A stretch of DNA of 64,000 bases, taken from IMG/VR virus record IMGVR_UViG_3300010429_001449; one strand, given 5' to 3'. This document shows, in pieces, positions 3,796 through 45,018 of this stretch. Under the pieces are notes generated by a model. That model was not told where the DNA came from and ran no database searches. It saw only the letters and a program-made list of their open reading frames with translations. Numbering within the stretch: position 1 is the first letter of the stretch; each line of letters opens with the position of its first letter. The translations under genes and the position numbers were made by a program. The DNA is from a virus. Its lineage: Duplodnaviria > Caudoviricetes.

Positions 3796-4032
3796 TTTGC
3801 AATCTCCCTGAAAAGTAATGGTTGACTGTCCAGCACTATCCTTAATATAACAGAACATTAGGCTATGTCAAGAGACTTTCCAGAAATATTTTTACGCAAT
3901 AACAAGCGGCGCGGAACGGGACAGGTTAGACAACGGTAGGGCGGGGCGCGGAACAAGCGGCGGCGGGGCGGGGCTATAGCCTGGCGCGGCAAGACAACAG
4001 ACAGGTCCGTAGCGGGAGACGACAGACGTTGC

Positions 4033-4137
4033 GCGGAGCGGTAGCGGAGCGGTAGCGGAGCGGTAGCGGAGCGGTAGCGGAGCGGTAGCGGAGCGGTAGC
4101 GGAGCGGTAGCGGAGCGGTAGCGGAGCGGTAGCGGAG
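4033..4137 (+). repeat. Perfect tandem repeat (GCGGAGCGGTA) x9.5
   Basis: Nine identical 11-mers 4033-4131 plus a partial unit. Confidence 0.97.
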
Positions 4138-4446
4138 AACCGGACGCGGAACGGAGTCCGGCGGGGCGCGGGGACGCGGACGCCACGCCGATTGATAATC
4201 CCGTCGGATACGCCAGGAGGAGCCAGGAGGAGCTAGGCCAGGGAAGAGCCAGGAGGCAGGATTGATAATCGTCAGCCCTCTGGCGCGGTGCGGACGCGGC
4301 GGCCAGGGGGTCAAGCGTCGGCGGAATCGGCGGTCGGCGGGGCCGGGGCCGGGCTGTACGGGGTCGGGGGTAGGGTCGGGGCGTCCGTACAAAAAGAACC
4401 CCCGGCGGGGTTAGGGCCGGGGGTTTGTGGCCGTGCGAGTCAATGG

Positions 4447-4758
4447 TCAGGCCGTGACGCCAAACAACGTATCGACCAGCGTATCCGTTGCGGCGGACAG
4501 TGCGATGACGGCGGATTGCGCGTGACGCGCAATCCAGCGGCGGGCCGCGTCTTCACTCTCGAATTGCTTTTCAGCGGAGATTACGCGGCGGACGCGGCCA
4601 CGGTCAAAGTCGGCGGAATAACCGTAGCGTTGCGCCGTGATTGTGCGGTCATAGTTCAAGCGGAGTTCCCCGATAGAAACATCACCAGCGAAGCAATCCC
4701 GCGAATCACCAAGCCTAACAAGGGGTCTGTTGATCGACCACGAAAACGATACTGACAT
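4447..4758 (-). CDS. Hypothetical protein
   Basis: ATG with GAGGAG RBS; terminator-like hairpin at 4391-4428. Confidence 0.75.
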   Translation of the reverse strand: MSVSFSWSINRPLVRLGDSRDCFAGDVSIGELRLNYDRTITAQRYGYSADFDRGRVRRVISAEKQFESEDAARRWIARHAQSAVIALSAATDTLVDTLFGVTA

Positions 4759-4809
4759 GGTAAGCTCCTCGAAAAGAAACGGGGACCGGTCTCCCAGTCC
4801 CCTAGATGG

Positions 4810-5097
4810 TTAGCTAAGGCCACTGGCCACTTCAATGGCACGGCGGCCTTGTTCCTCAATGGCCTCGTCCAGCGGGTCATAGAGACTCCGCAGATAGGCG
4901 CGGGCCGCGTCCGGGTCTTCCCGCTCTAACAGACGGACGCGGCGCATAAGATCGTTGCGCCGTGACAGTGCGACGCCGACGTCGGCGTCTTCGGCCACAA
5001 TAGCCTGCAGCAGGGCGTTGTCGCGTCCACAGACAACGTCGTAACCGATTTCATGATCCAAGCGGTTAAGCTCATCGTAAAGGTCGAAAAGTTCCAC
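4810..5097 (-). CDS. Hypothetical protein (acidic, helical)
   Basis: GTG after cassette RBS TTTTTGGGAGA. Confidence 0.8.
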   Translation of the reverse strand: MELFDLYDELNRLDHEIGYDVVCGRDNALLQAIVAEDADVGVALSRRNDLMRRVRLLEREDPDAARAYLRSLYDPLDEAIEEQGRRAIEVASGLS

Positions 5098-5682
5098 GGT
5101 TATCTCCCAAAAAGGTTGTCTGTCCACTACACTTAATATAACAGCAATCAAGCCAATGTCAAGAGAGTTTCCGAGATTATTTCAGATATTTTTACGCAAT
5201 GGTTGATAGGCCGTTTCTCAGACTGGTCTCCGCGTGATAGTCGGTGTGTTGCGTTCCGCACTAACAGACCGCGCAGACGCGGTTGTCGACCGGAATCCGG
5301 TAGCCGCGTCAATAGAGATACAAGCGGTCATTACAAATCCGGTAGACGGCGGGGGAAGTCTTTTCGGGGTCGGCGCGGCCTGGGTGCGGCGGCGCGGCGG
5401 CCCGCTTCGACGTCGACGTCTATTGAAAATCGCGATCCCCAGCAGGGAGGGGGACGAGCAACGGGCTTGGACTCCGTCGCAGACTCAGTCAACAGCGGGG
5501 GCAGATTGAAAATCGCCACACCCCGCCAGGCAAGCGGACGAGCGGGGCGGCGCACTAGGGCGCAAGGGCGGGATACATCTAGGCGGGGCCGGGGTTAGGG
5601 TTCAAGCATTGCAAGGGACGGATAAACGGCCAATGTTGCGCGGGACGATATGTCCCGCGCAACAATGGTTGACGCGCAACGG

Positions 5683-5907
5683 CTACAGAACGAACGGCTG
5701 CAGCCGCGCACGGCGGACAATCCACGTCCTGACATATTGCGCGGGAAGGGCCGCGCCGGGGGTATGCTCGTCCTGATAGGCGGATAACGGTATCCATGTA
5801 TCATCCCGGCTATCGGCGGAAAATGCCAGCTTGATTGCCTTATCGCTGACTTCCAGTACTTCCGCGTATGCGCGTACCCGCGCCCAATCCTGAGTGATGG
5901 TAGTCAT
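5683..5907 (-). CDS. Hypothetical small protein
   Basis: ATG after GCCGGAG RBS of second-class leader; SDKAI..WIPLS pattern. Confidence 0.75.
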   Translation of the reverse strand: MTTITQDWARVRAYAEVLEVSDKAIKLAFSADSRDDTWIPLSAYQDEHTPGAALPAQYVRTWIVRRARLQPFVL

Positions 5908-5913
5908 AGTTGA

Positions 5914-5980
5914 CTCCGGCGGGGGGTTAATTTGTCCCGCTCTATAAGACGATACGGACGGCGGAAAAGAATCTGACAAG
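5914..5980 (-). promoter_or_regulatory. Second-class promoter/leader, copy 1
   Basis: CTTGTCAGATT-N8-CCGTCCGTAT..TATAGAG..CGGGA..TTAACCCCCCGCCGGAG; matches 7245-7313. Confidence 0.7.
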
Positions 5981-6163: not shown

Positions 6164-6532
6164 TTATGGTTCGCGGGGGTCGACCGCTTCCATAACAAGT
6201 TCCTTGCCCAAGCTGACATAGTAGAGAACCGCCGTAGCTTCCGCGCCGTCAATCCACGCATAGTTACGCGGACGATACGTTACGGCGCGGCGGTTCAATG
6301 CCTTGCTGATAAGGCACAGAAGCAATCCCTTGCCATCATCCCGGAACGTAATGGTGCAGGGGATATGCCGCAGATAGAAACGGGGTCCGCGTCCGCGGTC
6401 CGCTTCCGTTGAAACGTCCAGCTTTTCCGCGTCCGCATGCGCTTCAAGCGCAGTTTCAACAGCGGCCACGACCTCGTCAATGGTCATGCTAGACGTTACG
6501 TTGACTTCGATGTTTTCCGTTGCAATCGTCAT
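6164..6532 (-). CDS. Hypothetical protein
   Basis: ATG after cassette RBS; terminator downstream. Confidence 0.8.
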   Translation of the reverse strand: MTIATENIEVNVTSSMTIDEVVAAVETALEAHADAEKLDVSTEADRGRGPRFYLRHIPCTITFRDDGKGLLLCLISKALNRRAVTYRPRNYAWIDGAEATAVLYYVSLGKELVMEAVDPREP

Positions 6533-6855
6533 TCTGACTTCTCCCGAAAAGAGGAATGTTGTCCGCGTCACTATCCTTAATATAACAGCACAGCGGCCTA
6601 TGTCAAGAGATTTTCCAGAAATATTTTTACGCAAAGACAAGCGGCGGCGGGACGGGGTCGGGACGGGAACGGACGGCGGGTATGCAGTTTGCGCGAAGGG
6701 CGGGACGGTTGCCTAGACAACGGCGGGGCGGCGGAGACTATCCCCCGGCGGAGCAACCGCAAGACGCAGTCGCGCCGCGACGCCGCCGGGGGTCGACCGC
6801 CTGGCGGGAGCCGATTGATAATCGCGCCCCACCTGGAGGGATCAGCCCACTCTGC

Positions 6856-6915
6856 GCAAAATATTATGCTTAAAAGTGTGTTAAACTTCGCACTGTTTTA
6901 AGCATAATATTTTGC
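6856..6915. repeat. 60-bp AT-rich inverted repeat element, copy 1
   Basis: GCAAAATATTATGCTTAAAA-N20-TTTTAAGCATAATATTTTGC, perfect 20-bp arms; second copy at 30575-30634. Confidence 0.92.
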
Positions 6916-6986
6916 TTAGCGACGAGGCGGGGGCTTGGAAATGTGCGGTCGGGGGCCGGGTCGTCTGCGCCAGGGCGGGGTCTGGC

Positions 6987-7416: not shown

Positions 7417-7707
7417 CTACAGTTCCACCAACAGACAACCCTTGCCCGCTTGGGCGGGTAATGGTTCAACCGCCGCCCACAGTGCGCGGGCCGCACCGGG
7501 GTTGCGGGAGTCTGTTCCCGACCAGAACGTCACGACTTCCCGACGGTCATCATTGTAAATGGCGACTTCACCGTCCAGTTCCGGGCCGTTGCCTCTGACA
7601 GCAACCGTCGCCTTGCGAAACGCGGCTGCAGCGTCCACTTTCTCCGGGTGTTCCGTGCGCGAGACTACCGCGCCGAAACGGTCTTTTGTTTCAACTGAGT
7701 ACATCAT
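7417..7707 (-). CDS. Hypothetical protein
   Basis: ATG after AAGGGAGA; follows the 7715-7978 gene; terminator at about 7359-7404. Confidence 0.75.
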   Translation of the reverse strand: MMYSVETKDRFGAVVSRTEHPEKVDAAAAFRKATVAVRGNGPELDGEVAIYNDDRREVVTFWSGTDSRNPGAARALWAAVEPLPAQAGKGCLLVEL

Positions 7708-7714: not shown

Positions 7715-7978
7715 TTAGACAATGGTAGCAATGAAACGGTCGATCTTGCTGTTCAATGCCGCGCTTCCGCAAGCAAGACAATGGTCCTCATCTTCCCACG
7801 CTTCCGCGAGTTCCCACGCATCCGCTTCCGTGAGTTCAACAACCCACGTGCCGTCTTCCGCGTCGCTCTCTCGCATGGCTTGCGAGAGTAAGTCCGACGT
7901 GAGATACCGTCCGCCGTGCCAGAAGATAGCTTCCGCTTCGCTGGCATCAAGAGTCAGGGTGTAAGCGTACCTTGCCAC
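7715..7978 (-). CDS. Hypothetical acidic protein
   Basis: GTG after cassette RBS. Confidence 0.8.
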   Translation of the reverse strand: MARYAYTLTLDASEAEAIFWHGGRYLTSDLLSQAMRESDAEDGTWVVELTEADAWELAEAWEDEDHCLACGSAALNSKIDRFIATIV

Positions 7979-8372
7979 GTTTCGATCTCCCAAAAAGAAT
8001 CTGGAATGTCCTGCACTACTGTTAATATAACAGCGGCGCAATCAATGTCAAGAGTATTTTCTGAAATATTTTGCGAGTGTGCGGGGCTTAGCGGAAAGTG
8101 TGCGGGCCTAGCCGTAAGAGTGTGCGCCGTGCGCGAAGACGTGCGCGGGGCCGGGCCTAGCCGAGCGGCGCAGAACGGGGGCCGGTTGGAAATCGCTACC
8201 CGGTACCGGGGGCGAGACGACGAGTCGCCGCGCCAGGATAATCGAGAGGGCGCGGGTCGGATTGGAAATCACGTGCCCTACCAGGCGGGGGCGGGGCCGC
8301 GACAACTGGATTTGTAACCCTGACAACCCGATTTGTAGAGCGGGGGGAATTGCCGGAGCAATGGTACAAGAG

Positions 8373-8417: not shown

Positions 8418-8708
8418 CTATCCGTCATAGTCGCCGCCGCCGTCCAGTTCCTCACCGAGCGGCGTTTCCCAGTCCCTGAAATCGTCATCGTGCGCGAAAT
8501 CCTGCCGTTCCTGCTCTTCCAGGATACGGTCGCGCTCAAGTTCGGCGTCCTCTTCGTACTTTTCCTCTTCCAACCGCTCCGACGCGGCATCATACTCGCG
8601 CTGTAACCGCGCTACGCGCTCATTGGCGCGACAAAGTTCTTGCCGGAGATTGTCGGCGTCACGCGACGCCTCCTCCAGTTCCCGTGCGATTGTGTCCAGA
8701 TCGGTCAT
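8418..8708 (-). CDS. Highly acidic coiled-coil protein
   Basis: Cassette promoter/RBS; E/D-rich heptad-like sequence. Confidence 0.8.
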   Translation of the reverse strand: MTDLDTIARELEEASRDADNLRQELCRANERVARLQREYDAASERLEEEKYEEDAELERDRILEEQERQDFAHDDDFRDWETPLGEELDGGGDYDG

Positions 8709-8895
8709 TGTCCAGTCTCCCGAAAAAAGGTTTGAAGTCCAGCACTACCGTTAATATAACAGCGGGCCGCGCAATGTCAAGAGTCTTTTTCCAGAATCTT
8801 AGAGATTTCTTTTTGAGCAATGGTCAAGGGCGTACAGCCGTTAAACGACAAAGCCCCGGTTTAGGGCCGGGGCTTTGCGTAGTGCTGTCTGTAGG

Positions 8896-9267
8896 TCATC
8901 CTACAGACTTCGGGAGAATGTTGTGTAGGGCAATGGTGTTAATGACGTTCGGGCGGGCCGGATCACGGCGGACCGTGATACGGACGGGAACGACCACGGT
9001 CGCGCCGCCCGGCGCAACCGCTTGATACTGAGCAATGCGCGTCAAAGCCAGCACGATACAGTCGATGGTTGACTCGCACGGCTCGTCCAGCACGATATCC
9101 GTATGCGTCTCGCGCTGGGCGTACGTTCCGGCGCTGGCGCAATAATGCAAGGGCGTAAGGCGCTCCCGCAACCGGACGACAAAGCGGTCGACCGTATCAA
9201 CGACGGTGTTTCCCCACTTGTGCCGAATCTCCGGCGTTGCCAGAAATGCAAGGGCGGCGTCTGTCAT
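8896..9267 (-). CDS. Hypothetical protein
   Basis: ATG after TTTTGTGGAGA; terminator at 8850-8877. Confidence 0.8.
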   Translation of the reverse strand: MTDAALAFLATPEIRHKWGNTVVDTVDRFVVRLRERLTPLHYCASAGTYAQRETHTDIVLDEPCESTIDCIVLALTRIAQYQAVAPGGATVVVPVRITVRRDPARPNVINTIALHNILPKSVG

Positions 9268-9633
9268 CGTTCCGTCTCCACAAAAGAAATGAATGTCTGT
9301 CACTACTGTTATTATAACAGCACGGCGTCCAGCGTCAAGAGAGTATTTCCGAAGATTCATCCTATTTCCGCGACGCCGGGAGACGGCCTGAGTTCGGGCA
9401 GCGAGACGGCGAGACGCTGACACCCAGTTGTCAGGGCCGGGCGGGGCCGAGGGCGGCGATTGATAATCGAGGCACTGAGGGCGGGTCGGGGGCGGAAATC
9501 CGGCGGCGTTGCTCGACGAAGAGCGGGGATTGATAATCGCGTCCCTCCCCCGGCGCGGGGCCGGGGCCGTTAAATGAACCCGGCCCGTCCGGAAAGTCCG
9601 GAGCGGGCCGGGAGAATGTCGTTACGCGGGCCG

Positions 9634-9909
9634 CTATGCGGGCCGCGTGTACTTGCGGAGCGTATTTTCCGATACGTCCAGCGCCTTTGACGTTGCGCGA
9701 TAGTTGCCGTTGCAAGCGGCAAGCGCCGCCGTCATATAGGCGCGAAGTACGGCGTCGACCGTCCGTACGCTGTTCGGGCCGTCAAGCGTTGTTTCGGGCT
9801 GCAGGTCCGTTGCCTTTGCAACCGGCGCAACCGTTGCCGTTGCCGTTGCAACCGGCGCGGTTGTTTCAACCGTTATCGTCACTCCGTTAACTTCAATGGT
9901 TTGCTTCAC
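9634..9909 (-). CDS. Fis-like helix-turn-helix DNA-binding protein
   Basis: C-terminal ALAACNGNYRATSKALDVSENTLRKY matches the Fis/NtrC-type HTH pattern. Confidence 0.8.
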   Translation of the reverse strand: MKQTIEVNGVTITVETTAPVATATATVAPVAKATDLQPETTLDGPNSVRTVDAVLRAYMTAALAACNGNYRATSKALDVSENTLRKYTRPA

Positions 9910-10268
9910 GGCGTCATTCTCCCAAAAAAGGTTGTCTGTCCTGCACTACCCTTAATATAACGGCGGGCCGTTCAATGTCAAGAGTCTTTTTTGTGTTGAC
10001 TGCGAAATACTTTTGACGGGCCGTATAAGGGCCGCGACGGGCCGCTATCCGGCAATGGTCCTGATATGCTCTAGCGGGCCGTTATGGGCCGTTATGGGCC
10101 GTTGCCGGGCCGCAAGGCGCAAGGCGCAATAAACGCCGCTATCGGGCCGCGCAACGGGCCGCTAAAAAAAAAATCCCGGAATTCCCGGAAAAGAGTCTTG
10201 ACATAGGCGGAATTGCTGTTATATTAAGGGTAGTGCTGGACAGACAACCTTTTTGGGAGAATGACAGA

Positions 10269-10832
10269 ATGACAGAGAACGAAACAATCAGGGCCGCGCA
10301 AAGCGGCGACAAAGGCGCAATGGACGCGCTGGTCGAAAAGTACACTCCGCTTGCAATGAGACTGGCGCTAGGCGGATTCGGCAAGGCGTCAAAGGCGGAC
10401 AAAAAGCAAGCCGCTTTGACGGGATTGCTTGACGCGATCCATACCTTTGACGAGACAAAGGCCAATGGCGGCGCATTCGGAACGCATGCGTACTGGACAA
10501 TCAAAGGCGCTGTTACGGTCGAATGCCGCAACTACGCCAAGCCGTTAGAGAACGCCGTTACGTCGGATGACGAATTGGCGACGGAAGTCTACGCCGATCC
10601 GGACGGGATATCTCCGGCGAAAAACGCCGAACGCAACGAAGATATCGCAAGGGCCGTTGCCAGCCTGGACAAGGCGACGGAACGGGAACGGGAAGCAACG
10701 CGCTTGTTCCTCGGGCTGGACAATGAGCTTGACCAAAGGTCATTGGTTGAAGTCGCCGGGATGATGAATGTTTCCCGGCAACGCGCAAAGCAACTGGTCG
10801 ACAAGGGCCTTGCGGCGATGCGGGCCGCGTAA
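10269..10832 (+). CDS. RNA polymerase sigma-70 family factor (sigma B; paralog of 1885-2475)
   Basis: FGTHAYWTIKGAVTVECRNYA aligns with sigma A; region 4 SLVEVAGMMNVSRQRAKQL. Confidence 0.9.
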   Translation: MTENETIRAAQSGDKGAMDALVEKYTPLAMRLALGGFGKASKADKKQAALTGLLDAIHTFDETKANGGAFGTHAYWTIKGAVTVECRNYAKPLENAVTSDDELATEVYADPDGISPAKNAERNEDIARAVASLDKATEREREATRLFLGLDNELDQRSLVEVAGMMNVSRQRAKQLVDKGLAAMRAA

Positions 10833-10891: not shown

Positions 10892-11566
10892 ATGGTTGAC
10901 TTCAAAGACATAATCGAATGCGATTTGGTCAAGCGGGTGATGGAAGTTGCCGCAGTCGGCAATCACTCATTACTGTTGTTCGGGCCGCACGATTACGGCA
11001 AGACTCTTTGCCTGCAGGCAATGGCGGGCCTAACCGACGTCGACAACGTCGGGCCAGTGCAGGATATGACCGCCGCAAAGCAACGGGCCTTGCGGAATAG
11101 GCTTGACCGTCACGAACGGACAATAGTTGCGGAAATCGTGCCGTGCCCTTGCGGGAACTACTGCAACGCGCATGCGGTATGCCGTTGCTCCGCAGTAGCA
11201 ATCCAGCGATACCGCGCAAAGCTAATGGACACGGTGCGGAGTTTCGACGCCGTGGTCGGGATACGACGCCCTATGCCGGAAGCAATGGCGCGGGTCCGTT
11301 GGGATACAGAGGATACGGAAACCGTCAAGGCGCGGGTTATGGCCGCGAAGGGTATCCCGACGCCGTCGGGGTTGTCTCTTGACGCCAGCGATATCGTATC
11401 AATGGCGGTGCGCCAAGCGGGAATGACGCCGAAACAAGTTGTCATTGCCAAAGCAATCGGCGAAAGCGTTGCGCGGCTTGACGGCAAGGCGACGGTGGAA
11501 GTCTTCCATATGAGCGAAGCGATCCAGTACGTGCTCGGGTTCAACAACATATGGGGAAGTCTGTAG
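10892..11566 (+). CDS. Minimal ComM/YifB (Mg-chelatase-like AAA+) protein, internally deleted
   Basis: DFKDI..KRVMEVAAVGNHSLLLFGP..GKT, PCPCG..CRCS..IQRY, C-terminal VARLDG..HMSEAIQY; lacks N-terminal Lon-like domain and Walker B segment. Confidence 0.8.
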   Translation: MVDFKDIIECDLVKRVMEVAAVGNHSLLLFGPHDYGKTLCLQAMAGLTDVDNVGPVQDMTAAKQRALRNRLDRHERTIVAEIVPCPCGNYCNAHAVCRCSAVAIQRYRAKLMDTVRSFDAVVGIRRPMPEAMARVRWDTEDTETVKARVMAAKGIPTPSGLSLDASDIVSMAVRQAGMTPKQVVIAKAIGESVARLDGKATVEVFHMSEAIQYVLGFNNIWGSL

Positions 11567-11812
11567 CTTCCCCGTTCTCCCTGGAAACCGGAGCGATCCA
11601 AGCGGTCGCTCCGGTTTTTCTTTGTACGGATTTCCACTCCCGAACCGTTGCATTTTCTGCAACAGTTCGCGGGGATTGATAATCGCGTTTCGAGTTGTTG
11701 CATTTTCCGCAACAACTGCCCGCGCCGAGAGGGTTTTTCGAGGGAATGATAATCGCGTTCCGGAACGCCCGCGCCAGGGCGGGGGCGTTTCAACCGGGGT
11801 TGTAATCGGGGG

Positions 11813-12118
11813 TTAGAACAACTGGAACGCTTCAAACAATCCGGCGTTGCCAGTCAGGACGGGGGCCGCGTCCGCGTCGGTCAAGTAGATGAAGTCATTG
11901 CCTTGCACGGCGTTAATGTCCGCGTCGGGCGTTTTGTGCCAGCGGTACTCAAGTTCGTACGGGCACGTCAGGACGCGGCGCGTTCCGTTTTCCCAGTGGG
12001 GGATTTGATACGGTTCGTTCAGTTTCCGCAGTATCAACGTATTGACTCCCTTGCGGGCCGCACGGGCCGCGCCGGGGCACAAATCCGTAACGTCAAGTGT
12101 TTCTGTATCAACGGTCAC
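11813..12118 (-). CDS. Hypothetical protein
   Basis: ORF collinear with upstream cassette genes; weak RBS. Confidence 0.55.
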   Translation of the reverse strand: MTVDTETLDVTDLCPGAARAARKGVNTLILRKLNEPYQIPHWENGTRRVLTCPYELEYRWHKTPDADINAVQGNDFIYLTDADAAPVLTGNAGLFEAFQLF

Positions 12119-12177
12119 TTGTTTGCCTTAAACGCAAGCGGGGACGGCGCGGGCCGTCCCCTAGTAATGGTTGACTG

Positions 12178-12351
12178 TCACCGTTCAAGGGCCGCTTCGC
12201 GGAGTTCCGCAACGGCGGCGTCCCGCGCCAGCACCTTAGCGTAAAAGACTTTATGCGCATCCGCAAGGGCCGCTTTCGCGGTATCAAGTTCCGCTTGCGC
12301 GGTCTTGACCTTGTCATTGGCCTTGTCCACTTTGTTAAGGGCGGGTTTCAT
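12178..12351 (-). CDS. 57-aa coiled-coil protein (not in ORF track)
   Basis: CCTTTTCTGTGGAGA RBS then ATG; MKPALNKVDKANDKVKTAQAELDTAK... Confidence 0.75.
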   Translation of the reverse strand: MKPALNKVDKANDKVKTAQAELDTAKAALADAHKVFYAKVLARDAAVAELREAALER

Positions 12352-12408
12352 GGTTCTGAGTCTCCACAGAAAAGGTTGCAGGGGCCGGTTTCCCAGCCCC
12401 CAAAGAAA

Positions 12409-12594
12409 CTAACTGAGTCCGCTTGTCTTTTCGACAGCGTCGCGGCCTTGCTGCGCAATGGCGCGATCCAGCGGGGTCAAATCCTCATCCGCATCCTCAT
12501 CCACAACGACCGGGCCGCAAATCGGCTCGACCGCGTCCTTGCAGTCCGCGTAGTAACCGCAAGCCCTGCATCCGTATGGAAGGTCATTCGTCAT
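12409..12594 (-). CDS. Small Cys-rich protein
   Basis: CRAC..C..C; cassette promoter/RBS. Confidence 0.75.
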   Translation of the reverse strand: MTNDLPYGCRACGYYADCKDAVEPICGPVVVDEDADEDLTPLDRAIAQQGRDAVEKTSGLS

Positions 12595-12700
12595 TCTCGT
12601 CTCTCCACAAAAGGTTGTTTCTGTCCGCGTCACTACTGTTATTATAACAGCGGCGCGGCCACTGTCAAGAGTTTATTTCAGGAATTCTTGACGGGTGTAC

Positions 12701-12735
12701 AAAAAGAATCCCCCCGTAGCATTACGGGGGGATTC
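12701..12735 (-). terminator. Intrinsic terminator
   Basis: GAATCCCCCCGTA-GCAT-TACGGGGGGATTC with A-tract on plus strand. Confidence 0.8.
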
Positions 12736-12748
12736 AATGGTTGTTGCG

Positions 12749-13955: not shown

Positions 13956-14092
13956 TGTCTCCACAAAAGGTTGATTGTCCACTATCCTTATTATAACAGT
14001 GGCCGCGCCAGCGTCAAGAGTCTTTTCAGGAATATTTCCTTAAACGCAAGCGGGGATAGTCCGCAAGGGACTATCCCCGACAATGGCCGCGC

Positions 14093-30555: not shown

Positions 30556-30574
30556 AAATCCGTCGAGTCGCTGC

Positions 30575-36136: not shown

Positions 36137-36508
36137 TTAACCTAGTTCGGTTGCGTCCACGACACCATCAACCGACACTACAGCACTGCACAAGTGCCAT
36201 TGCAAAGTGCCCATCTTAATCTTGTAAGCCTTACAGAAGAGTTTGACACGATCATACACACCGGCGAGATCGCCCAAATCAAACACGGAAGGGTCAACGA
36301 CAGCGCTCTCCGACGTCGACACGCGGCAATGCGACTTGTCCAGCAAGACGCAGAGACGACCCACATGGTCGCTGTGCAAGATGCCCACACAGATATCATC
36401 CCCGACGGGATAACACCCTATATCCGACTGGTAGTAGTTCAGCGCTTTCACGCTGGCCGCGTCAGTCACAAAGAAACCAAAGAACAATGTCGCGTAACTT
36501 TTCTGCAT
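36137..36508 (-). CDS. Hypothetical protein
   Basis: Promoter 36552 and AGGAGA RBS. Confidence 0.75.
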   Translation of the reverse strand: MQKSYATLFFGFFVTDAASVKALNYYQSDIGCYPVGDDICVGILHSDHVGRLCVLLDKSHCRVSTSESAVVDPSVFDLGDLAGVYDRVKLFCKAYKIKMGTLQWHLCSAVVSVDGVVDATELG

Positions 36509-36651
36509 GGCTTTGTCTCTCCTACTGCTATTATAACCGCGCAACCGTCTATGTCAAGTCTTATTCAGAAAATATTTATCCCCTCTTGACAGAGGCCGCG
36601 CCGCCGTTATAATAAAAGTAGATTCAACTAACCTTTTGTGGAGACAGGACA

Positions 36652-36951
36652 ATGACGAAAGCGAAGCGACGCAAGACGGACCTCTTTCACACGCTCAAGG
36701 ACTACTACCTTGAGGGTCAGTGGTTCCTTGACCGCGTAGGCAATCTGTACATCGTGCCCGCAACCTACGCATCGTGCCAACCGATAATCGGCCCCGGCGA
36801 TGACGACGCCCGCGTCATCGAAGCCCTGGAAGAATCCCGCGCCGCCAATGACGGCGAAGTCACGGAAAGCGTCATGCTCGACTGGGATTTGCTCCCCATA
36901 GGACCAGACGTGCGCCGATTCTCCGAACAGCGGGGTTATTTCTATCTTTAA
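36652..36951 (+). CDS. Hypothetical protein
   Basis: Cassette promoter/RBS. Confidence 0.8.
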   Translation: MTKAKRRKTDLFHTLKDYYLEGQWFLDRVGNLYIVPATYASCQPIIGPGDDDARVIEALEESRAANDGEVTESVMLDWDLLPIGPDVRRFSEQRGYFYL

Positions 36952-37023
36952 CCCTTGACATAGGGCGTCCTGCTGTTATAATAACAGTAGGATAGAACAA
37001 ACCTTTTTGTGGAGAACAAAGCA

Positions 37024-37221
37024 ATGACGAAAGAAACGACCGTCAAAGAGACGACCGCCAACGACAGGCTGATAGCCGCCGCGCCGGACCTGCTGGAAGC
37101 GTGTAAGCTGGCTTACGCGGCGCTGAAGCCCGGTGATGTTCGCAAGGACTTCAGCGGACACGTTGCGAAAGCCGCTCTGGGCAATGCAATCTACAAGGCG
37201 GAAGGGAAAATACCTCAGTAA
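37024..37221 (+). CDS. Small phage protein (ANxRLIAAAPDLL motif)
   Basis: Motif common in small phage proteins; cassette promoter/RBS. Confidence 0.8.
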   Translation: MTKETTVKETTANDRLIAAAPDLLEACKLAYAALKPGDVRKDFSGHVAKAALGNAIYKAEGKIPQ

Positions 37222-37239
37222 CCTTTTTGGAGAGAGACA

Positions 37240-37593
37240 GTGATACACACAGACGACAAAGTAATAGTTACGAGCAGCGTACCGGATGGCTACGCTCGTT
37301 TCGTGAGTGAAGTCGGGATAGTCCTAGACGTTTCCGATGACGGGATTGCACTCGTGGAAGTGTACGACCCCGATTCGGATAACATCGAGGAAGTGCCTTT
37401 CGAGATCGAGCATCTGACCCTTGCCAGCGATGACGATGCAAGGCTGGCGATGTTCCGCCTGCTGGCTAACGCGGCGGCGGACGCGGCGGGCGTGGGCGAG
37501 TGTGACGCCGAGACGCTGGAGAAGATGCTCGACGCGATGCTGAACGTGTACAACAAATCCGATTACATCCTCACCGTCAAGAAAGGGGGCTAA
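37240..37593 (+). CDS. Hypothetical acidic protein
   Basis: CCTTTTTGGAGA RBS. Confidence 0.8.
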   Translation: MIHTDDKVIVTSSVPDGYARFVSEVGIVLDVSDDGIALVEVYDPDSDNIEEVPFEIEHLTLASDDDARLAMFRLLANAAADAAGVGECDAETLEKMLDAMLNVYNKSDYILTVKKGG

Positions 37594-37594
37594 C

Positions 37595-37831
37595 GTGCCG
37601 CCTACTGTTTTGGTACCCATACAAATGACTCCCGAAATGTGGGAGAGAGTCCGCGAGTCCGCCGACGCTTCCCGCGTAGGGAGCGTGGACGCTGACGACA
37701 AGGCGTACAACGCGAAGCTGGTCGATGACGCGGAGAACTTCCGGCTGACGAGAGCCGTCCGTATGGAAGTCTGCGACTTGGTCTATCTCGCTCTGTTCGG
37801 CGCAAGCCCTCAGCCTGGAGCAAAGATATGA
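37595..37831 (+). CDS. Hypothetical protein
   Basis: Tight operon spacing. Confidence 0.65.
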   Translation: MPPTVLVPIQMTPEMWERVRESADASRVGSVDADDKAYNAKLVDDAENFRLTRAVRMEVCDLVYLALFGASPQPGAKI

Positions 37832-38028
37832 ACCCGAAATACCCGGAAATTGAAGTAGAGTTGACGGGGCGGGACAGCAACGCCTACGCCATACTAGGCG
37901 GCGTGACCCGCGCCCTACGCCTGGCCGGAGTCTCGAAAGAGGAACAGGAAGCGTTCTGCGCCGAAGCCACAAGCGGCGACTACGATCATCTGCTGCAGAC
38001 AGCTATGCGGTGGGTAACAATCACCTGA
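37828..38028 (+). CDS. Small conserved-type phage protein
   Basis: LTGRDSNAYAILG..ALRLAG..EATSGDYDHLL. Confidence 0.8.
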   Translation: MNPKYPEIEVELTGRDSNAYAILGGVTRALRLAGVSKEEQEAFCAEATSGDYDHLLQTAMRWVTIT

Positions 38029-38044
38029 AAAGAGGAATCTTCCC

Positions 38045-38833
38045 GTGACATGGAATCCTGAAAGTCTGAAACATCTGAACTCGCTAACCAAGTTTCCGTC
38101 GATTTTCCAACCGTGGGCGGCGGTACAGCAAGACAAGCGACCGTGCTACGTCGGCGACATCATTTCCAACAAGTTCAGCCAATCTGTGTTCCGCGTCACC
38201 GAGAAGGTGGACGGAACCAATGCGCGGCTGATCGTTACGGACGATGGATGGTTCATCGGCGCTAGAGAAGAACTGCTGGCCTACAGCTACGACTTGCTGG
38301 TCCACGAACAGAACTTCATCGTGGAGACCTTGCGGCCTATCGCCGAAGTCGTTGCCCACGGCATTGCCGAAGGCTTGCGGAACGAACCGTTTGGCGCGGT
38401 CGTGCTTTACGGAGAGGTGTTCGGCGACGGTATCCAGAAACGGTACCGTGGACAGCCACGCGGTTTCCGCGTGTTCGCAACCCGACGTTGCATGTGGGAA
38501 GTCTCGCCGAATCCCCAAGTCTGGCGGCAAACCAGCACGGGCTTCGACTTTCGAGGCAGTCTCAATGCGGCGCAAGAATTCGTTGACGCCTACGGGCGCG
38601 GCGTGTTGACTACCGTACCCGACCTAGGTTGGGTTTCCGGCGACGTTCTCGCCGATCCCCGCGCTGCGCTGGCGTGGCTAAGACGGTTTTCCGACTCCCG
38701 CGCCGTGCCGGGCGCTCAGTGCGAAGGCGTAGTGTTACTGAGCGACGGCGACTACACGAAGGCGGACGACGGCAGTCTTCAACGGAACATCCACAAGATC
38801 AAGTTTGAGGATTTTCCGAGGGAGTGGCTATGA
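38045..38833 (+). CDS. ATP-dependent RNA ligase (Rnl2-like adenylation domain)
   Basis: Motif I TEKVDGTN, III LYGEVFG, IIIa FRVF, IV EGVVL, V KIK. Confidence 0.85.
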   Translation: MTWNPESLKHLNSLTKFPSIFQPWAAVQQDKRPCYVGDIISNKFSQSVFRVTEKVDGTNARLIVTDDGWFIGAREELLAYSYDLLVHEQNFIVETLRPIAEVVAHGIAEGLRNEPFGAVVLYGEVFGDGIQKRYRGQPRGFRVFATRRCMWEVSPNPQVWRQTSTGFDFRGSLNAAQEFVDAYGRGVLTTVPDLGWVSGDVLADPRAALAWLRRFSDSRAVPGAQCEGVVLLSDGDYTKADDGSLQRNIHKIKFEDFPREWL

Positions 38834-39045: not shown

Positions 39046-39313
39046 CGCCGAGAGCAGCCTTGAGGCCGTCCGATGGAGGCACTTGATGCACGAATCGGGC
39101 GGCCTCTTTTCCATTCAGGAAAACGATGGTAGTCGGGATTTCCAATACGTCATAGAATGCGGCCCGAGCGCGGCCTTGCGGATCGTCGGTATTGAAAAAC
39201 GTAACGTCCGCCGCGACGCCCCATTTGGGGAGTTTGACCGCCATCATGCTTTTGGTACTGGCGCACTTGGGGCAGCCGGGTTTGCCGAAAATGAAAATCT
39301 CTTTGTCGTTCAT
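39002..39313 (-). CDS. Glutaredoxin/thioredoxin-like protein (NrdH-like)
   Basis: GCPKC active site, IPT cis-Pro motif; overlaps nrdD stop. Confidence 0.85.
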   Translation of the reverse strand: MNDKEIFIFGKPGCPKCASTKSMMAVKLPKWGVAADVTFFNTDDPQGRARAAFYDVLEIPTTIVFLNGKEAARFVHQVPPSDGLKAALGVTTNDSLPQSSGPS

Positions 39314-41418
39314 GCGTGAACCCCTACGTGATACTGTCCTCGCCTGCGAGCGTGAAGCTCTCCAATCTTCGACTGGTTCCACTTGCTCGTGCGGCTGAAG
39401 TAGCCGACGATACGCGACATTCCGTCAACTTCTGTGCAACCACAAAACAGGCACTTCTCGTGGACGCCCACAGACTTACGATGACAGGAGTGGCAGATCG
39501 TGAACTCAGGCGAGATGGTTAGTTGCGCGGTGTTGGTTTTGGCTAACGTCAGATCAACTAGGCGATAGAGACTCTGCGCATCGGGAAGTTTCTCACCAAC
39601 GAAGGCGTGGGTGATTGCGCCCGCGTCGATCATGCCGTGGAACTTGGCCTGCAGCTTGATGCGCGTTACGAGGTCCACGTCGGCGTCGGCGCGGACATGG
39701 ACACTGTTGGTGTAATAGATATCGTCGTTCTCCAGACTGCCGCGTACAACGGACTTGGCCTCCTGGTAACGCGCAACATCCAGCTTGGCGAGCCGCCGAG
39801 TAGCGCTTTCCGCCGGGGATTCCTCTAATGAAAATCCGTAGCCGGTAGCTGCGGTCTCCTTGACACACCGATCCTGCATGTGGGACACGATGTCCAGACC
39901 GAGCATCAGTGCCTCGTTGGACTCGTGCAACTCCTTACCCGTGCAGTGTTTAACGCACTCGTTCAAACCGAGCAGCCCTACGATGTACGTAGCCTTCTTG
40001 AGATCGATGTAAGGCGATCCGTCCGGCGTCTCGCGGCCAACTTGCCAGAGCGGAAGACCCGCGCCCATCAAGGATTGGACGAAGTCGCGCTTGACGCTGT
40101 GCGCCTCGAACGCCAGCGACATGGCGGTATCGATGTGGTGATAAAGCGCTCCCACATCCCCTCCCGCCCGATACGCGGCCTGTGGGAGATTAATCGTGAC
40201 GTTCTGGAAGCCGCAGAAGCGCAGGCGTTCCGGGTGCTTGATCATCTCGATGTCGGTAATGATCGTTTTGAGACGGCAGCAGGCAGCCACGGTCATGGCG
40301 TTGCGGTCGAACACGAAGTACGGAGAGCCGTTCTCGCTGGCGACTTGGCAAGCGTATTCGAGCAGCTTGCGCTGTCTGGCCCGCTTGAACGTCATCTTGT
40401 CGATGTGAATGTCGCATTTCGGGAACGGGAAGATGTTGCCGTCGGCGTCGCCTTCGCGGTACACGTCGAGCAGGGCTTTAGCGAAGCGTTGTACCTCGCG
40501 CTCGTACTCGCCGTAGGTTTTGCCTGTCGGCTTGCCGCCCGGCCCTATAGCCGGAATATTGCGAAGATAAGAAGGGACGCCTAGATGGATGTTGAAGTCC
40601 AAGAAGAGCGTCTGGCCGCCCCGCGAGAAGGCGTTTTGGGAACAGGAGTAGATGAGGTACTGGGCTTCCTGCTTCACTTCCTTGTCGGAAAGGCCGACGA
40701 GGTAAGGGGCATAGAAGATGTTGAGGTAGGCCAACCCGAGCGCCCCGGCGTAGTAAGCCTGCATTGAGGCTAGGAAGGTGTTGAGGTGTCCTGTCAGAAC
40801 GCGGGCGTGTTTGGCGGGGGAACTGGCCGTGGCCAGGTTGTCCAGGCGCAGCCCAAACATCTTCAGCCATTCGAGCGAATGACCCGAGCAGTAGACGCGG
40901 ATGGGGTAGCCGAGATCGTGGAGATAGATACGTCCTTCGCGGTGGGCGTCTGCTATGTGTCGCGGGAAGACGCACTCAAGGGCGTACTGTTTGAAGATGA
41001 TCTCGTTGACCGTCTGCGCCACGGCTTCTGGACTGTTAGCAACGATGTTGCTGTTCTCTTTGTTGGGAGTGCGAATGATGTTGTCCAGGTCGTACTTCGG
41101 AATGCCTATGACGGTCTGCTGGCGCAACTGAGTCGTCAGGCCGCGCTCGAACAACTCGTTGTTGACCAGCGAACGAACGAGAGTCGTGTCTACACGGGCC
41201 ATACCACTTTTGATAATCCGTTCCTCCACGACGCGGGCGATATCAAAAGCGGTCTCGTGGGGCACTCCGGCTTCGCGGCTCAGGGCGTCTGCGATCTTGT
41301 CCCTATCCCAGGGATGGTACTCTTCCGCAGTTGCGCCGTTGACGAGAAGGGAAAGGTCTGTAGCGGACGTTTTGACACGGGTTTTACGGACGGTTATACC
41401 CGCAGCTTGTGGGTTCAT
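39310..41418 (-). CDS. nrdD: Anaerobic (class III) ribonucleoside-triphosphate reductase with ATP cone
   Basis: ATP cone, IYLHDL, ACCRL, VTINLP, ESPAES, YYTNS, CxxC..CxxC, glycyl-radical RIVGYF. Confidence 0.96.
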   Translation of the reverse strand: MNPQAAGITVRKTRVKTSATDLSLLVNGATAEEYHPWDRDKIADALSREAGVPHETAFDIARVVEERIIKSGMARVDTTLVRSLVNNELFERGLTTQLRQQTVIGIPKYDLDNIIRTPNKENSNIVANSPEAVAQTVNEIIFKQYALECVFPRHIADAHREGRIYLHDLGYPIRVYCSGHSLEWLKMFGLRLDNLATASSPAKHARVLTGHLNTFLASMQAYYAGALGLAYLNIFYAPYLVGLSDKEVKQEAQYLIYSCSQNAFSRGGQTLFLDFNIHLGVPSYLRNIPAIGPGGKPTGKTYGEYEREVQRFAKALLDVYREGDADGNIFPFPKCDIHIDKMTFKRARQRKLLEYACQVASENGSPYFVFDRNAMTVAACCRLKTIITDIEMIKHPERLRFCGFQNVTINLPQAAYRAGGDVGALYHHIDTAMSLAFEAHSVKRDFVQSLMGAGLPLWQVGRETPDGSPYIDLKKATYIVGLLGLNECVKHCTGKELHESNEALMLGLDIVSHMQDRCVKETAATGYGFSLEESPAESATRRLAKLDVARYQEAKSVVRGSLENDDIYYTNSVHVRADADVDLVTRIKLQAKFHGMIDAGAITHAFVGEKLPDAQSLYRLVDLTLAKTNTAQLTISPEFTICHSCHRKSVGVHEKCLFCGCTEVDGMSRIVGYFSRTSKWNQSKIGELHARRRGQYHVGVHA

Positions 41419-42714: not shown

Positions 42715-42803
42715 GTCCGTATCCTCCGTAAAAAAGGTTTCTGTCCTACTGTTATTATAACAGCAGGACAGCGTATGTCAAGAGAGTTAACAGAGAAAGA
42801 AGC

Positions 42804-43184
42804 TTATCCAGCCGCCTTGATCAACCGCTGGATTTTCGGCGTGACGCATTCCGGCGCGGCGTCCGCCCACTCGATCACGTCATCTAGCGTAACGGTGTCA
42901 GTGCCGGGAACCGTGTAGTCCCAGCCCGCACTTTTGCACATGCGCTTGCACAGGGCAATAATACGGTCCTCTCGATCCAACCACGGCACATTGCCGTATT
43001 GGTCATCCGTCATTATCGCCACCGTATGTCCGGACGATTGGACCTCCCGGATTTCGTAGGTGCGATTCTTTAACACTCTCTCCCACACATGCACCGTCAG
43101 GTTGTTCAGCTTGCCCAGTTCAAACAAACGGGCCGCCGCATTGCTCTGCTGGCGAAATGCTATCGCTGCAAAATCTGTAGACAC
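42804..43184 (-). CDS. Hypothetical protein
   Basis: GTG after GGAGG; cassette promoter. Confidence 0.8.
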   Translation of the reverse strand: MSTDFAAIAFRQQSNAAARLFELGKLNNLTVHVWERVLKNRTYEIREVQSSGHTVAIMTDDQYGNVPWLDREDRIIALCKRMCKSAGWDYTVPGTDTVTLDDVIEWADAAPECVTPKIQRLIKAAG

Positions 43185-43255
43185 GTTCGTATCCTCCGAA
43201 AAAGGTTTCTCTACCTTTATTATAACAGCGGAAACATCTATGTCAAGACGCATTA

Positions 43256-43287
43256 AAAGAAAAGGGGCCGGGATTTCTCCCGGCCCC
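43256..43287 (-). terminator. Intrinsic terminator (near-identical copy at 44396-44422)
   Basis: GGGGCCGGGA-TTTC-TCCCGGCCCC with A-tract on plus strand. Confidence 0.8.
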
Positions 43288-43301
43288 AATCAGGACGGCG
43301 G

Positions 43302-43883
43302 TTAGGCCGCTTTGCGAGCGGCGGCGTTGATGACTTTTTCGCCGAAGGCGGCGACGAAGGCGGCCCGCAGCTTGGGATCGTTGTGGTACGGATCGCCCTT
43401 CGTAGGCTTGCCCAAGAAGCTGCCGAGCAGAAACATATCGCCAGCGGCGAGACACTTGCCGATTTCCTCTTTGATCCACTTGTCGCGGAGCAGAGCTTCC
43501 CACACCGCGCCGCTCACGTCCTCGAAGTGGCGCTCCGCGACTTGATGAAGGTTGTAGCCGTCCTTGCAGTAGCCGCCCGCCTTGTCTTTGGCGTCCAGGT
43601 GGTCGGGACCGGCTAAATCGGGCGGAACGAACTTGCCGGGATCGGAGTAATCACCGGATATGACGATTTGATCCCCAGCCCAACTGCCGACGACCGGAAG
43701 ATCGTCGACGCCCATAAGATCACCGCCGCCGCGCCCGTTGCCGTCCGCCAGAAGAATGGCGAGACCGAGCATAGTGGCGTTGCCGCTGGAACCGAACTCC
43801 AGCAACTTCAAGCCGTCGCTGAACTTGTGCGGATGAATGAACTGACGCTTGGTCACGTTCACCGGAAAGTAGTACTGACCCAT
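43302..43883 (-). CDS. Hypothetical phage protein (MGQYY type)
   Basis: MGQYYFPVN..GLKLLEF..GSWAGD..GDY. Confidence 0.85.
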   Translation of the reverse strand: MGQYYFPVNVTKRQFIHPHKFSDGLKLLEFGSSGNATMLGLAILLADGNGRGGGDLMGVDDLPVVGSWAGDQIVISGDYSDPGKFVPPDLAGPDHLDAKDKAGGYCKDGYNLHQVAERHFEDVSGAVWEALLRDKWIKEEIGKCLAAGDMFLLGSFLGKPTKGDPYHNDPKLRAAFVAAFGEKVINAAARKAA

Positions 43884-43962
43884 CGTTCTGACCTCCACAA
43901 AAGGGAAAAGGTTTGTTCTGTCCTACCTTTATTATAACAGCAGGACAGCCAATGTCAAGGGA

Positions 43963-44316
43963 TCAACTGGCCGCAAGGCCGAAAAAGACGAAAGGCTTTC
44001 CGCCCTTCTTGGCAAGCTGTTCCAGCAGCCAGCGGGATGTTCCGCAACCGGCTTCCGCGAGCTTCTTGATGCGCGGCACGGAAAGAGGAATGCAGCCGCA
44101 CTCTCCCCACTTATCGAAATCGAAGCCGTGCCTCTCCGCATACTCGAAGGGGTCTTCGCCCGCCGGAACGCGCACGATAGTAAAGCCGTCCGTCGTACTG
44201 ATCGTGCCGTTGTAAAGATCATGCCCGTAATCGTACACAGCGGCACGAACAGCAGCCTTGTAAGCGGCCTCTGCCGTCTTACCCACAGCAGCTTGAACGA
44301 ACTTCTCAGCACCCAT
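43963..44316 (-). CDS. Hypothetical phage protein
   Basis: MGA..AY..AV..YGH..YNGTI..DKW. Confidence 0.85.
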   Translation of the reverse strand: MGAEKFVQAAVGKTAEAAYKAAVRAAVYDYGHDLYNGTISTTDGFTIVRVPAGEDPFEYAERHGFDFDKWGECGCIPLSVPRIKKLAEAGCGTSRWLLEQLAKKGGKPFVFFGLAAS

Positions 44317-44428
44317 CTTTGTTCTCCACAAAAAGGTTTGTTCTGTCCTACCTTTATTATAACAGCAGGACAGGCTATGTCAAGAGCAGGAAACGAAAAG
44401 GGCCGGGATTTCTCCCGGCCCTGGTTGA

Positions 44429-44902
44429 CTACTCGACGCGGGCGGCGACGAGTTTCTTCTGTTCCTTGATCTTGCCGTTGACCCACTTGGCGAAAGCGGG
44501 GCCGTCGCCCTTGAACAGCACCTTCTTACCGGACTCCATGACGGTGACAGTGACGGTGCGAGATACAACGCCACCCGGCTCTCCACAGTACGATCCTCTG
44601 TTGATGACGTACTGGTAGGACGTGTCTTTCCAGTCCTTCTTGGGCCAACGGCCTTCGACGTAAACGTTGCCGACGCAGTCCTTGAGCCGCGCCACAAGCT
44701 GCGCCGCCAAACAGCCCATGCCGTTGGCGACCTTGCCCAACCGGTCACTGTCGCCGCTGCCAAGTCCGTTGATGATCTGCACCTTCCCCAGCAACGCGGC
44801 AAGGTCTTCGCCGTGCCTTTCGGGATTACCGTCAAACTGACGGTAGAGCGTCATCACGTGCCGCTTGCCGTCCATCACAACTGTCAGTGATCGCGTTCCC
44901 AT
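44429..44902 (-). CDS. Hypothetical phage protein (MGTR type)
   Basis: MGTRS..YRQFDGNP..G..NGMGCLAAQLV; tandem promoters at 44974 and 45004. Confidence 0.85.
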   Translation of the reverse strand: MGTRSLTVVMDGKRHVMTLYRQFDGNPERHGEDLAALLGKVQIINGLGSGDSDRLGKVANGMGCLAAQLVARLKDCVGNVYVEGRWPKKDWKDTSYQYVINRGSYCGEPGGVVSRTVTVTVMESGKKVLFKGDGPAFAKWVNGKIKEQKKLVAARVE

Positions 44903-45018
44903 CTTTACGACCTCCACAAAAAGGTTTGTTTTGTCCATCCGTCCTACCTCTATTATAACAGCAGGACGGCCTATGTCAAGTATTATAACAGCGAAACCGC
45001 CGTTGTCAATACAGAAAA

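Follow-up and report, generated by a model that had tools for sequence, protein, structure and literature searches.

Putative early promoters in repeated promoter-leader cassettes of an uncultured giant phage outside the T4 group

The locus and its genes

The DNA analysed here, referred to as the window, is a stretch of 64,000 nt from the Caudoviricetes record IMGVR_UViG_3300010429_001449 of IMG/VR, and corresponds to bases 1158-65157 of one 268,817-bp phage sequence with a G+C content of 55.5%. This work concerns an array of short repeated cassettes between window positions 3802 and 45009, each of which combines a near-consensus sigma-70-type promoter with a conserved leader. In the window, 78 genes were predicted between 3.4 and 45.5 kb, and these are served by 45 such promoters.

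Genes for replication proteins (a family A DNA polymerase, a DnaB-type helicase and a Toprim primase), for a RecA-like protein and for the anaerobic ribonucleotide reductase NrdD lie in the window, together with a tRNA cluster. Judged by the replication genes, the source, a giant phage, is not T4-like. Megablast of public phage records returned no close relative, and the best phage match of the polymerase had 33% identity. Relatives of the polymerase in IMG/VR were distant (≤40% identity) and lacked the promoter pattern, a search of IMG/VR for the locus with a 427-aa protein of the array returned no match, and the matches obtained when a cultured relative was sought through the RecA-like protein all had ≤29% identity. 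Matches to Pfam families were obtained for about 14 of 75 array proteins; the array consists mostly of genes without a known family.

Promoter sequence and spacer length

Exact matches to TTGACR-N16-TATAHT were counted, spacers from N13 to N21 were compared, and the background was taken from shuffled sequence. Minus-strand promoters are cited by the first base of the -35, which is the higher coordinate. The window contains 49 exact N16 sites (10 on the plus strand and 39 on the minus strand) where 0.00 were expected from 100 shuffles, and 45 of the 49 fall within the array. A preliminary description of this DNA, made from the sequence alone, had reported about 49 promoters, with a spacer of 16 nt in each of about 20 copies measured. 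Both statements were borne out by the exact counts. In the whole genome 85 N16 sites and two N17 sites were found and none with spacers of N13-15 or N18-21. When one or two mismatches were allowed, N16 alone was enriched (87 sites against 2.8 in shuffled sequence, compared with 6 against 4.0 for N17).

Conservation extends beyond the two boxes. Among the 49 window copies, the spacer ends in GC(T/C)GT in 38, a TG is present at -15/-14 (extended -10) in 39, a TAG lies at a constant position downstream of the -10 in 43, and a CTTTT..GGAG/GAGG leader was found in 39. The recurring spacer end, the conserved leader and the GCGTAAAAATATTTCTGGAAA-type upstream tract that the left-end copies have in common had been recognised in the preliminary description, and all three were confirmed. 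In the consensus a C precedes TTGACA and an AAA block is situated at about -43 to -40, while the A+T content of the 25 nt upstream is 58% compared with 44% genome-wide. The complete cassette is a module of 70-90 nt, composed of an A/T-rich UP-like tract, CTTGACA, the 16-nt spacer ending in GCTGT, TATA(A/T)T, a ..GTAG.. start region and a leader. This leader is about 35 nt long, has little structure, and carries at its 3' end CCTTTTGTGGAGA, consisting of a U-tract and a ribosome binding site, after which the start codon follows. Intergenic sequence, which makes up 12.7% of the genome, harbours 77 of the 85 sites. A ribosome site is located 26-31 nt past the -10 in most array promoters, and a gene is directly downstream of 42 of the 45. 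With these features, the predicted function of the cassettes as promoter and leader is well supported by sequence.

Cassettes of a comparable kind, the promoter-early stem-loops (PeSLs), have been described in the T4-type phages RB49/phi1, PST/T4 and nt-1/KVP40 (Arbiol et al. 2010, PMC2839356; Comeau et al. 2014, PMC4122927), and their consensus spacer is given as N17 in both papers. The preliminary description had named 17 nt as the usual sigma70 optimum. The length of 16 nt is in itself not odd: in RB49, the phage from which PeSLs were defined, 26 sites with a TTGAC -35 and a perfect TATAAT have spacers of 15 (n=2), 16 (13), 17 (10) and 18 nt (1). A 16-nt spacer is ordinary among phage early promoters, and the unusual point is its exclusivity alone. 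In two contigs related to this phage the ratio of N16 to N17 was 13:1 and 14:0. The constant length is best explained by common descent of the copies together with selection against length change.

The 80-kb block at genome 68-148 kb, which consists of long operons in one direction, contains no N16 site, and this absence fits a separate late class of promoters. Several of the few intergenic regions in this block have GTGTTACACT (for example at 77833, 80024 and 126405 in window coordinates), in one case with a TTGTAA box 17 nt upstream; these sites are candidates for a middle or late class of promoters. Dense arrays of consensus promoters were also seen in three low-G+C metagenome or viral contigs (L092, JAEEGL012547819.1; L005; L126), where a TG extended -10 is combined with a mixture of 16- and 17-nt spacers and with a conserved leader of their own (TGTAAAGAGAGG). 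Since these contigs are unrelated and nevertheless carry such arrays, promoter-leader arrays of that kind are widespread.

Transcription units

For comparison, relatives were obtained as metagenome contigs from a scan with the promoter pattern; they have about 70-78% nucleotide identity and carry the same cassette. Contig L134 is collinear with window 2-16.4 kb and contigs L120 and L172 with 26.7-37.2 kb, and L177 and L178 correspond to regions elsewhere in the genome. Contig L172, with 99.95% identity to L120 and no insertions or deletions, was uninformative.

The array comprises 42 transcription units, with one gene in 23, two genes in 11 and three to five genes in 8 (Table 1). The arrangement of one gene per promoter, as first described, was therefore observed for 23 units and not for the 19 that have two to five genes. 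The six close back-to-back promoter pairs are genuine, with the first bases of their -35 boxes at 14556/14585, 19815/19863, 22285/22313, 24078/24115, 27797/27833 and 36557/36586, and three of the six are kept in a relative. The cassette at 36954-37021 is complementary to that at 44317-44384 (91% over 68 nt). One promoter-leader is situated inside gene 26754-27734, a frame of 326 codons, and its equivalent in L120 is at position 981 on the reverse strand. Because this internal cassette is accompanied by an in-frame start at 27197, both the long protein and a C-terminal form of 147 residues could be made.

Table 1. Promoters and associated features in window coordinates. All promoters have a 16-nt spacer (N16) unless stated; L134 and L120 are the related contigs.
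Position	Strand	Feature or downstream genes	Remarks
3802-45009		Array	45 promoter-leader cassettes, 78 predicted genes, 42 transcription units, mostly leftward
1805-1833	+	Phage sigma factor 1 gene 1885-2475	TTGACA-N17-TATACT, no TG; only N17 in the window
3844-3871	-	Gene 3427-3795	
5135-5162	-	Gene 4810-5097	
6579-6606	-	Gene 6164-6532	
8024-8051	-	Genes 7715-7978, 7417-7704	
8753-8780	-	Gene 8418-8708	
9311-9338	-	Gene 8896-9267	Entire unit missing in L134
9954-9981	-	Gene 9634-9909	
10198-10225	+	Phage sigma factor 2 gene 10269-10832, gene 10892-11566	
12641-12668	-	Genes 12409-12594, 12178-12351, 11813-12118	Unit missing in L134
13139-13166	-	Gene 12749-13099	Unit missing in L134
13990-14017	-	Gene 13500-13955	Unit missing in L134
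14529-14556	-	Gene 14093-14485	Back-to-back with 14585, pair kept in L134
14585-14612	+	Gene 14653-15018	
16387-16414	-	Genes 15693-16346, 15015-15581	
16592-16619	-	Predicted non-coding RNA of ~150 nt, to G+C-rich terminator 16470-16447	TATACT; no ribosome site or reading frame; region 16438-16619
17178-17205	-	Gene 16889-17140	17-bp hairpin 17198-17162 (-28.5 kcal/mol), -10 in loop, scored terminator-like
17693-17720	-	Gene 17224-17655	
19788-19815	-	Phage sigma factor 3 gene 19092-19745 and two further genes	
19863-19890	+	Gene 19931-20356	
20376-20403	+	Three genes, 20433-21335	
22258-22285	-	Genes 22019-22237, 21636-22007	
22313-22340	+	Genes 22382-22888, 22879-23316	
24051-24078	-	Genes 23689-24012, 23456-23686	
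24115-24142	+	Genes 24187-24777, 24790-25173	
26661-26688	-	Four genes, 26611-25409	
27220-27247	-	Within gene 26754-27734, with leader; in-frame start 27197	Kept in L120
27770-27797	-	Gene 26754-27734	Back-to-back with 27833, pair kept in L120
27833-27860	+	Genes 27901-28374, 28384-28782	
28779-28806	+	Four genes, 28848-30555	Promoter and first three genes missing in L120
32006-32033	-	Gene 30681-31964	
32435-32462	-	Gene 32117-32392	Hairpin, -18.4 kcal/mol
33489-33516	-	Genes 32845-33447, 32465-32848	18-bp hairpin, -27.9 kcal/mol
33931-33958	-	Gene 33522-33890	
34487-34514	-	Gene 33961-34446	Paralogue of 34506-34970; unit missing in L120
34997-35024	-	Gene 34506-34970	Unit missing in L120
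36101-36128	-	Genes 35604-36026, 35031-35465	
36530-36557	-	Gene 36137-36508	Orthologous L120 promoter precedes three unrelated genes
36586-36613	+	Gene 36652-36951	
36955-36982	+	Five genes, 37024-38833	
42754-42781	-	Five genes including NrdD gene 39310-41418	14-bp hairpin 42771-42741 (-21.7 kcal/mol), scored terminator-like
43219-43246	-	Gene 42804-43184	G+C-rich terminator directly upstream
43931-43958	-	Gene 43302-43883	
44356-44383	-	Gene 43963-44316	Terminator directly upstream
44952-44979	-	Gene 44429-44938	
44982-45009	-	Second tandem promoter, 30 nt upstream of 44979	Directly after tRNA-Leu 45019-45105
48277-48304	-	tRNA/small-RNA cluster 47841-45019	Outside array
53017-53044	-	Gene 52057-52995	Weak PD-(D/E)XK nuclease match
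56459-56486	-	Gene 55852-56439	TATACT
61095-61122	-	Target downstream uncertain	TATACT; after primase gene

Sigma factors and the reading of the N16 sites

Three small sigma-70-family proteins were identified in the phage: sigma 1 (window 1885-2475), sigma 2 (10269-10832) and sigma 3 (19092-19745). The genes of sigma 2 and sigma 3 sit behind N16 promoters, and that of sigma 1 behind the sole N17 site of the window. In sigma 1 and sigma 3 the helix that reads the -35 has the sequence LTRERVRQI, near-identical to that of primary sigma factors. Sigma 3 aligned with SigA in regions 2 and 4 alone, and as the alignment jumps from residue 114 to 120 of sigma 3 across SigA 213 to 270, region 3 is missing. 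The residues of the -10-reading stretch in region 2 of sigma 3 also differ from those of primary sigma factors. With the TG-reading region 3 absent and the -10-reading residues different, sigma 3 is unlikely to be the reader of TGnTATAAT. In sigma 1, regions 2 and 4 are separated by about 23 residues. The targets of the phage sigma factors are probably promoters with a TTGACA-like -35 and a different -10.

The N16 sites fit every element recognised by a primary sigma factor, namely the -35, the TG, the -10 and the UP-like tract, and their spacer falls in the 16-18-nt range of primary-sigma promoters. Because of this match, the poor suitability of sigma 1 and sigma 3, and the location of the sigma 2 and sigma 3 genes behind N16 sites, we infer that the N16 sites serve the host's primary sigma factor as early promoters and that the phage sigma factors form the next step of the cascade.

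It could be argued that a phage-encoded sigma factor reads the N16 sites instead, with sigma 1 made first from the lone N17 promoter and the 16-nt spacing serving as a mark that distinguishes phage from host promoters (a spacer switch). Three sigma genes are available for this, the -35 helix of sigma 1 and sigma 3 is almost of the primary type, the N17 site before the sigma 1 gene has no TG, and near-absolute spacing is commoner with small alternative sigma factors than with primary ones, the RB49 promoters being a mixture of 16 and 17 nt. This explanation is nevertheless quite improbable: it would leave the match to all three primary-sigma elements and the UP-like tract unaccounted for, it faces the missing region 3 and altered -10-reading residues of sigma 3 and the short distance between regions 2 and 4 of sigma 1, the genes of sigma 2 and sigma 3 themselves depend on N16 sites, and the N17 argument is a single case. 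Just as doubtful is the broader idea that the 16-nt spacing, the GCTGT spacer end and the constant start region together form a private code by which phage promoters are marked for a phage factor, which could be a small sigma factor with a primary-type -35 helix or a protein that modifies the polymerase. If such a code existed, a first step from the lone N17 site would be followed by diversion of the host polymerase to 85 look-alike promoters.

An additional role of the 85 near-consensus promoters, as a sink that diverts host RNA polymerase from host genes, would be compatible with their number and strength, each site having the UP-like tract, -35, TG and -10. Native PeSL promoters are reported to be of such strength that nearly all clones bore promoter mutations (PMC2839356). 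A sink remains an unlikely addition to a reading as host-dependent early promoters, as nearly every site precedes a gene or an RNA, decoys without a product were not seen, and expression suffices as an explanation.

The hairpin over the -10

In many copies the spacer, in its 3' half, is reverse-complementary to the first bases of the transcript, which places the -10 in the loop of a potential hairpin, and the promoters show their best symmetry about the fourth base of the -10. Folding below -12 kcal/mol was predicted for 19 of the 45 array copies (~40%); examples are the stems at 33516, 17205 and 42781 (Table 1). The mean folding energy was -11.4 kcal/mol for the sense RNA, -8.7 for the antisense RNA and -8.6 when the variable parts were shuffled, in a comparison that treats related copies as independent and thus overstates the support. 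Covariation between spacer and leader in a fixed register was weak except for columns 13/37 and 14/36. A test of each copy's own duplex against those with other copies was significant (1/5000 permutations) and is confounded by shared descent, and proven covariation is not claimed.

This palindrome (CTGTTATAATAACAG plus longer arms) might be an operator for a dimeric phage repressor that ends early transcription, and not an RNA hairpin. About one third of the copies have the palindromic core on the fourth base of the -10, and shut-off of early genes is expected for a phage with its own sigma factors. Several features make such an operator very unlikely. The outer arms change in sequence between copies but remain complementary (CTGTCC/GGACAG, CCGTCC/GGACGG, GGCCGTC/GACGGCC), G-T pairs favour folding of the sense strand over the antisense strand, as fits an RNA structure and not a protein-binding site, and many copies have no palindrome.

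As an RNA structure, the hairpin would act on transcripts that enter the cassette from upstream. At window 3-23 kb, 47 ordinary terminators were predicted compared with 24.5 expected, and separate G+C-rich terminators stand upstream of several left-end copies. At 23-43 kb no enrichment was observed (20 compared with 22), and at 32-45 kb stop codons are located 3-10 nt ahead of the next -35. Because terminators are not enriched at 23-43 kb, genes abut the next promoter at 32-45 kb, and two of the hairpins (cassettes 17205 and 42781) were scored terminator-like by a scan tool, it is plausible that the -10 hairpin attenuates read-through transcription from the upstream unit. By inspection, no clear trend was observed for an inverse relation between hairpin strength and the presence of a separate upstream terminator.

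Differences from relatives and exchange between cassettes

Between the window and its relatives about 16 gene differences were recorded. About 7 of these concern a complete promoter-plus-gene unit, one consists of swapped genes behind a promoter pair that is conserved, and the rest are promoter-less genes. Units found only in the window are 9338, the block 12668/13166/14017, 28779 with its first three genes, and 34514 and 35024; those found only in the relatives are L134 1926 and L120 7153. In the swap, the divergent pair is kept and unrelated genes lie behind one arm (window 36557 compared with L120 11677). At 70-78% identity the junctions of these changes are not placeable. For the one deletion junction that was tried, promoters 33958 and 35024 were compared with L120 7606 (6/11 and 2/11 informative bases); the similarities of spacer and leader fit a crossover within the promoter core, with counts that are too small to decide. 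The 75 array proteins include one substantial pair of paralogues (33961-34446 and 34506-34970), a tandem duplicate unit that is missing in L120.

The cassettes themselves carry signs of exchange. The leader starts with TAGGA in 12 of 16 copies at window 32-45 kb, compared with TAGTG in 10 of 12 orthologous L120 copies, 13 of 14 L134 copies and 15 of 17 left-end copies of the window. Independent mutations would hardly place the same 2-nt leader difference in a dozen neighbouring copies of one genome. Pairs of cassettes are up to 87-91% identical over 68-77 nt, and this includes spacer bases that are dispensable for the promoter; dispensable spacer sequence such as GGCTGTCCTGC is common to copies before unrelated genes. 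A leader variant specific to region and genome, and near-identical cassettes before unrelated genes, lend indirect support to sequence exchange between cassette copies. A RecA-like recombinase is among the proteins of the phage.

The alternative is that the cassettes are just strong promoters kept alike by selection, and that gene turnover results from ordinary illegitimate recombination in a region that is not essential. Chance alone would yield unit-sized changes, since 54% of the array genes have their own promoter and a single-gene change will often include it. Further observations weigh against exchange-prone, PeSL-like cassettes. Single-gene units are only 55% of the total, and promoter-less genes account for about half of what differs from the relatives. 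A 2.3-kb replacement (window 11811-14092) is bounded by a terminator region and a stop codon, so that both ends are outside promoters. Spacer identity was 0.51 for orthologous and 0.48 for non-orthologous promoters, values which fit saturation or exchange equally. In over half of the copies the hairpin, the statistics of which are inflated as described above, is weak or absent, several orthologous copies of the relative do not keep it, and the U-tract is 3-16 nt beyond the stem in most copies, a poor geometry for a classic terminator. Selection alone would nonetheless have to produce the 2-nt leader difference in a dozen neighbouring copies, which is absent from the orthologous copies, and the recurrence of dispensable spacer sequence before unrelated genes. 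We regard it as a possible but rather unlikely explanation. The recombinogenic cassette system that was originally proposed thus finds partial and indirect support in the PeSL analogy, the leader variants, the near-identical cassettes and the whole-unit differences, and none in the promoter-less half of the changes; gene order in the relatives likewise gave a divided answer, with whole units on one side and the 11811-14092 replacement on the other.

In L134, cassettes at 655 (-) and 9891 (+) precede near-identical tRNA-like RNAs (GTGGCCCGGTGGAAGCGGG...GGTTCGACTCCCGCG) and not proteins. L178 encodes at 1895-2695 a homologue (59% identity) of window gene 38045-38833, adjoining homologues of genes near genome 252 kb, a long-range rearrangement between the two phages.

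Other sequence features

Window 1-1700 has a G+C content of about 73%, a strong G-over-C skew (0.345) and no convincing gene predictions, and is packed with short recurring motifs, among them GGGGTCA(C/G)G and GGCAATGGTC. About 10 tandem copies of the 11-nt unit GCGGAGCGGTA occupy 4011-4159, just upstream of the first array promoter. An 83-nt A/T-rich element is present at 6852-6934 and 30571-30653, with 84% identity between the two copies; it contains a 17-bp stem (TATGCTTAAAAGTGTGT...ACACTTTTAAGCATA) and was scored terminator-like by the scan tool. A hairpin resembling that of the 83-nt element was also found upstream of the promoter at genome 206,533.

Relation to known systems

The most common PeSL layouts have a stem-loop between the boxes or over the -10, and these stem-loops are stated to end transcription in a reporter (PMC2839356). 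Excised mini-circles are a product of recombination between PeSL copies. The cassettes described here resemble PeSLs in being repeated intergenic modules of about 100 nt, in which an A/T-rich tract and a near-consensus sigma-70 promoter are combined with a stem-loop, here a predicted one, that in many copies covers the -10, and with a ribosome site and start codon. They also share with PeSLs their clustering in regions of small genes of unknown family, their linkage to genes that differ between related phages, and a likeness between copies that is sufficient for recombination. All described cases of PeSL-type cassettes that we know of are in T4-like myoviruses. The present carrier, in contrast, is not T4-like, as judged by its family A polymerase, DnaB-type helicase and three sigma factors. 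Furthermore, the spacing here is N16 at 85 of 87 sites while RB49 has a mixture of 16 and 17 nt, the stem is formed from the spacer and the transcribed start instead of a GGGG..CCCC tract, and there is strong conservation of the leader itself. As the replication genes of the carrier are non-T4-like and its polymerase is so distant from those of other phages, the cassette is best described as an analogue of the PeSL and not as a homologue.

The early promoters of T5 and the A1-A3 promoters of T7 are near-consensus promoters for the host primary sigma factor and strong early competitors for polymerase. They share this type, the UP elements and the extended -10 with the present sites. In T7 and T5 they are few, located at one genome end and followed by long operons, whereas here there are 85 homologous copies, with about one per 1.7 array genes. 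The morons of temperate phages are genes with their own promoter and terminator. Self-contained promoter-gene-terminator units of this form occur at the left end of the array, but morons have no common flanking repeat, and here the same cassette is found on all units.

Taken together, we estimate a probability of roughly 75% that the array represents early promoters of a giant, uncultured, non-T4-like phage, placed in repeated, PeSL-like and exchange-prone cassettes of 70-90 nt. In this scheme, host RNA polymerase with its primary sigma factor would fire all cassettes simultaneously at infection. This would switch on dozens of small genes without a known family, the genes of two phage sigma factors, of a DNA methylase and of NrdD, and RNA repair genes; tRNA and small-RNA operons elsewhere in the genome would also be expressed from such promoters. 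In read-through RNA the hairpin would probably attenuate transcription, an effect that would matter most at 32-45 kb, where separate terminators are rare. Because the copies are homologous repeats, they might exchange sequence by homologous recombination or gene conversion, so that whole promoter-plus-gene units would be gained and lost and the region would behave like the PeSL-rich hyperplastic regions of T4-type phages.

Significance

The array is a documented example of the known PeSL-like design in a new lineage of giant phages outside the T4 group. The 85 sites provide a map of the early transcription units of this phage, as well as of its tRNA and small-RNA operons, and the cassettes offer a compact and highly regular set of promoter variants for tests of spacer length and of promoter-embedded attenuators. 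That an unrelated lineage of giant phages from anaerobic environments shares this composite design suggests that the design is a convergent and general way to express and reshuffle accessory early genes.

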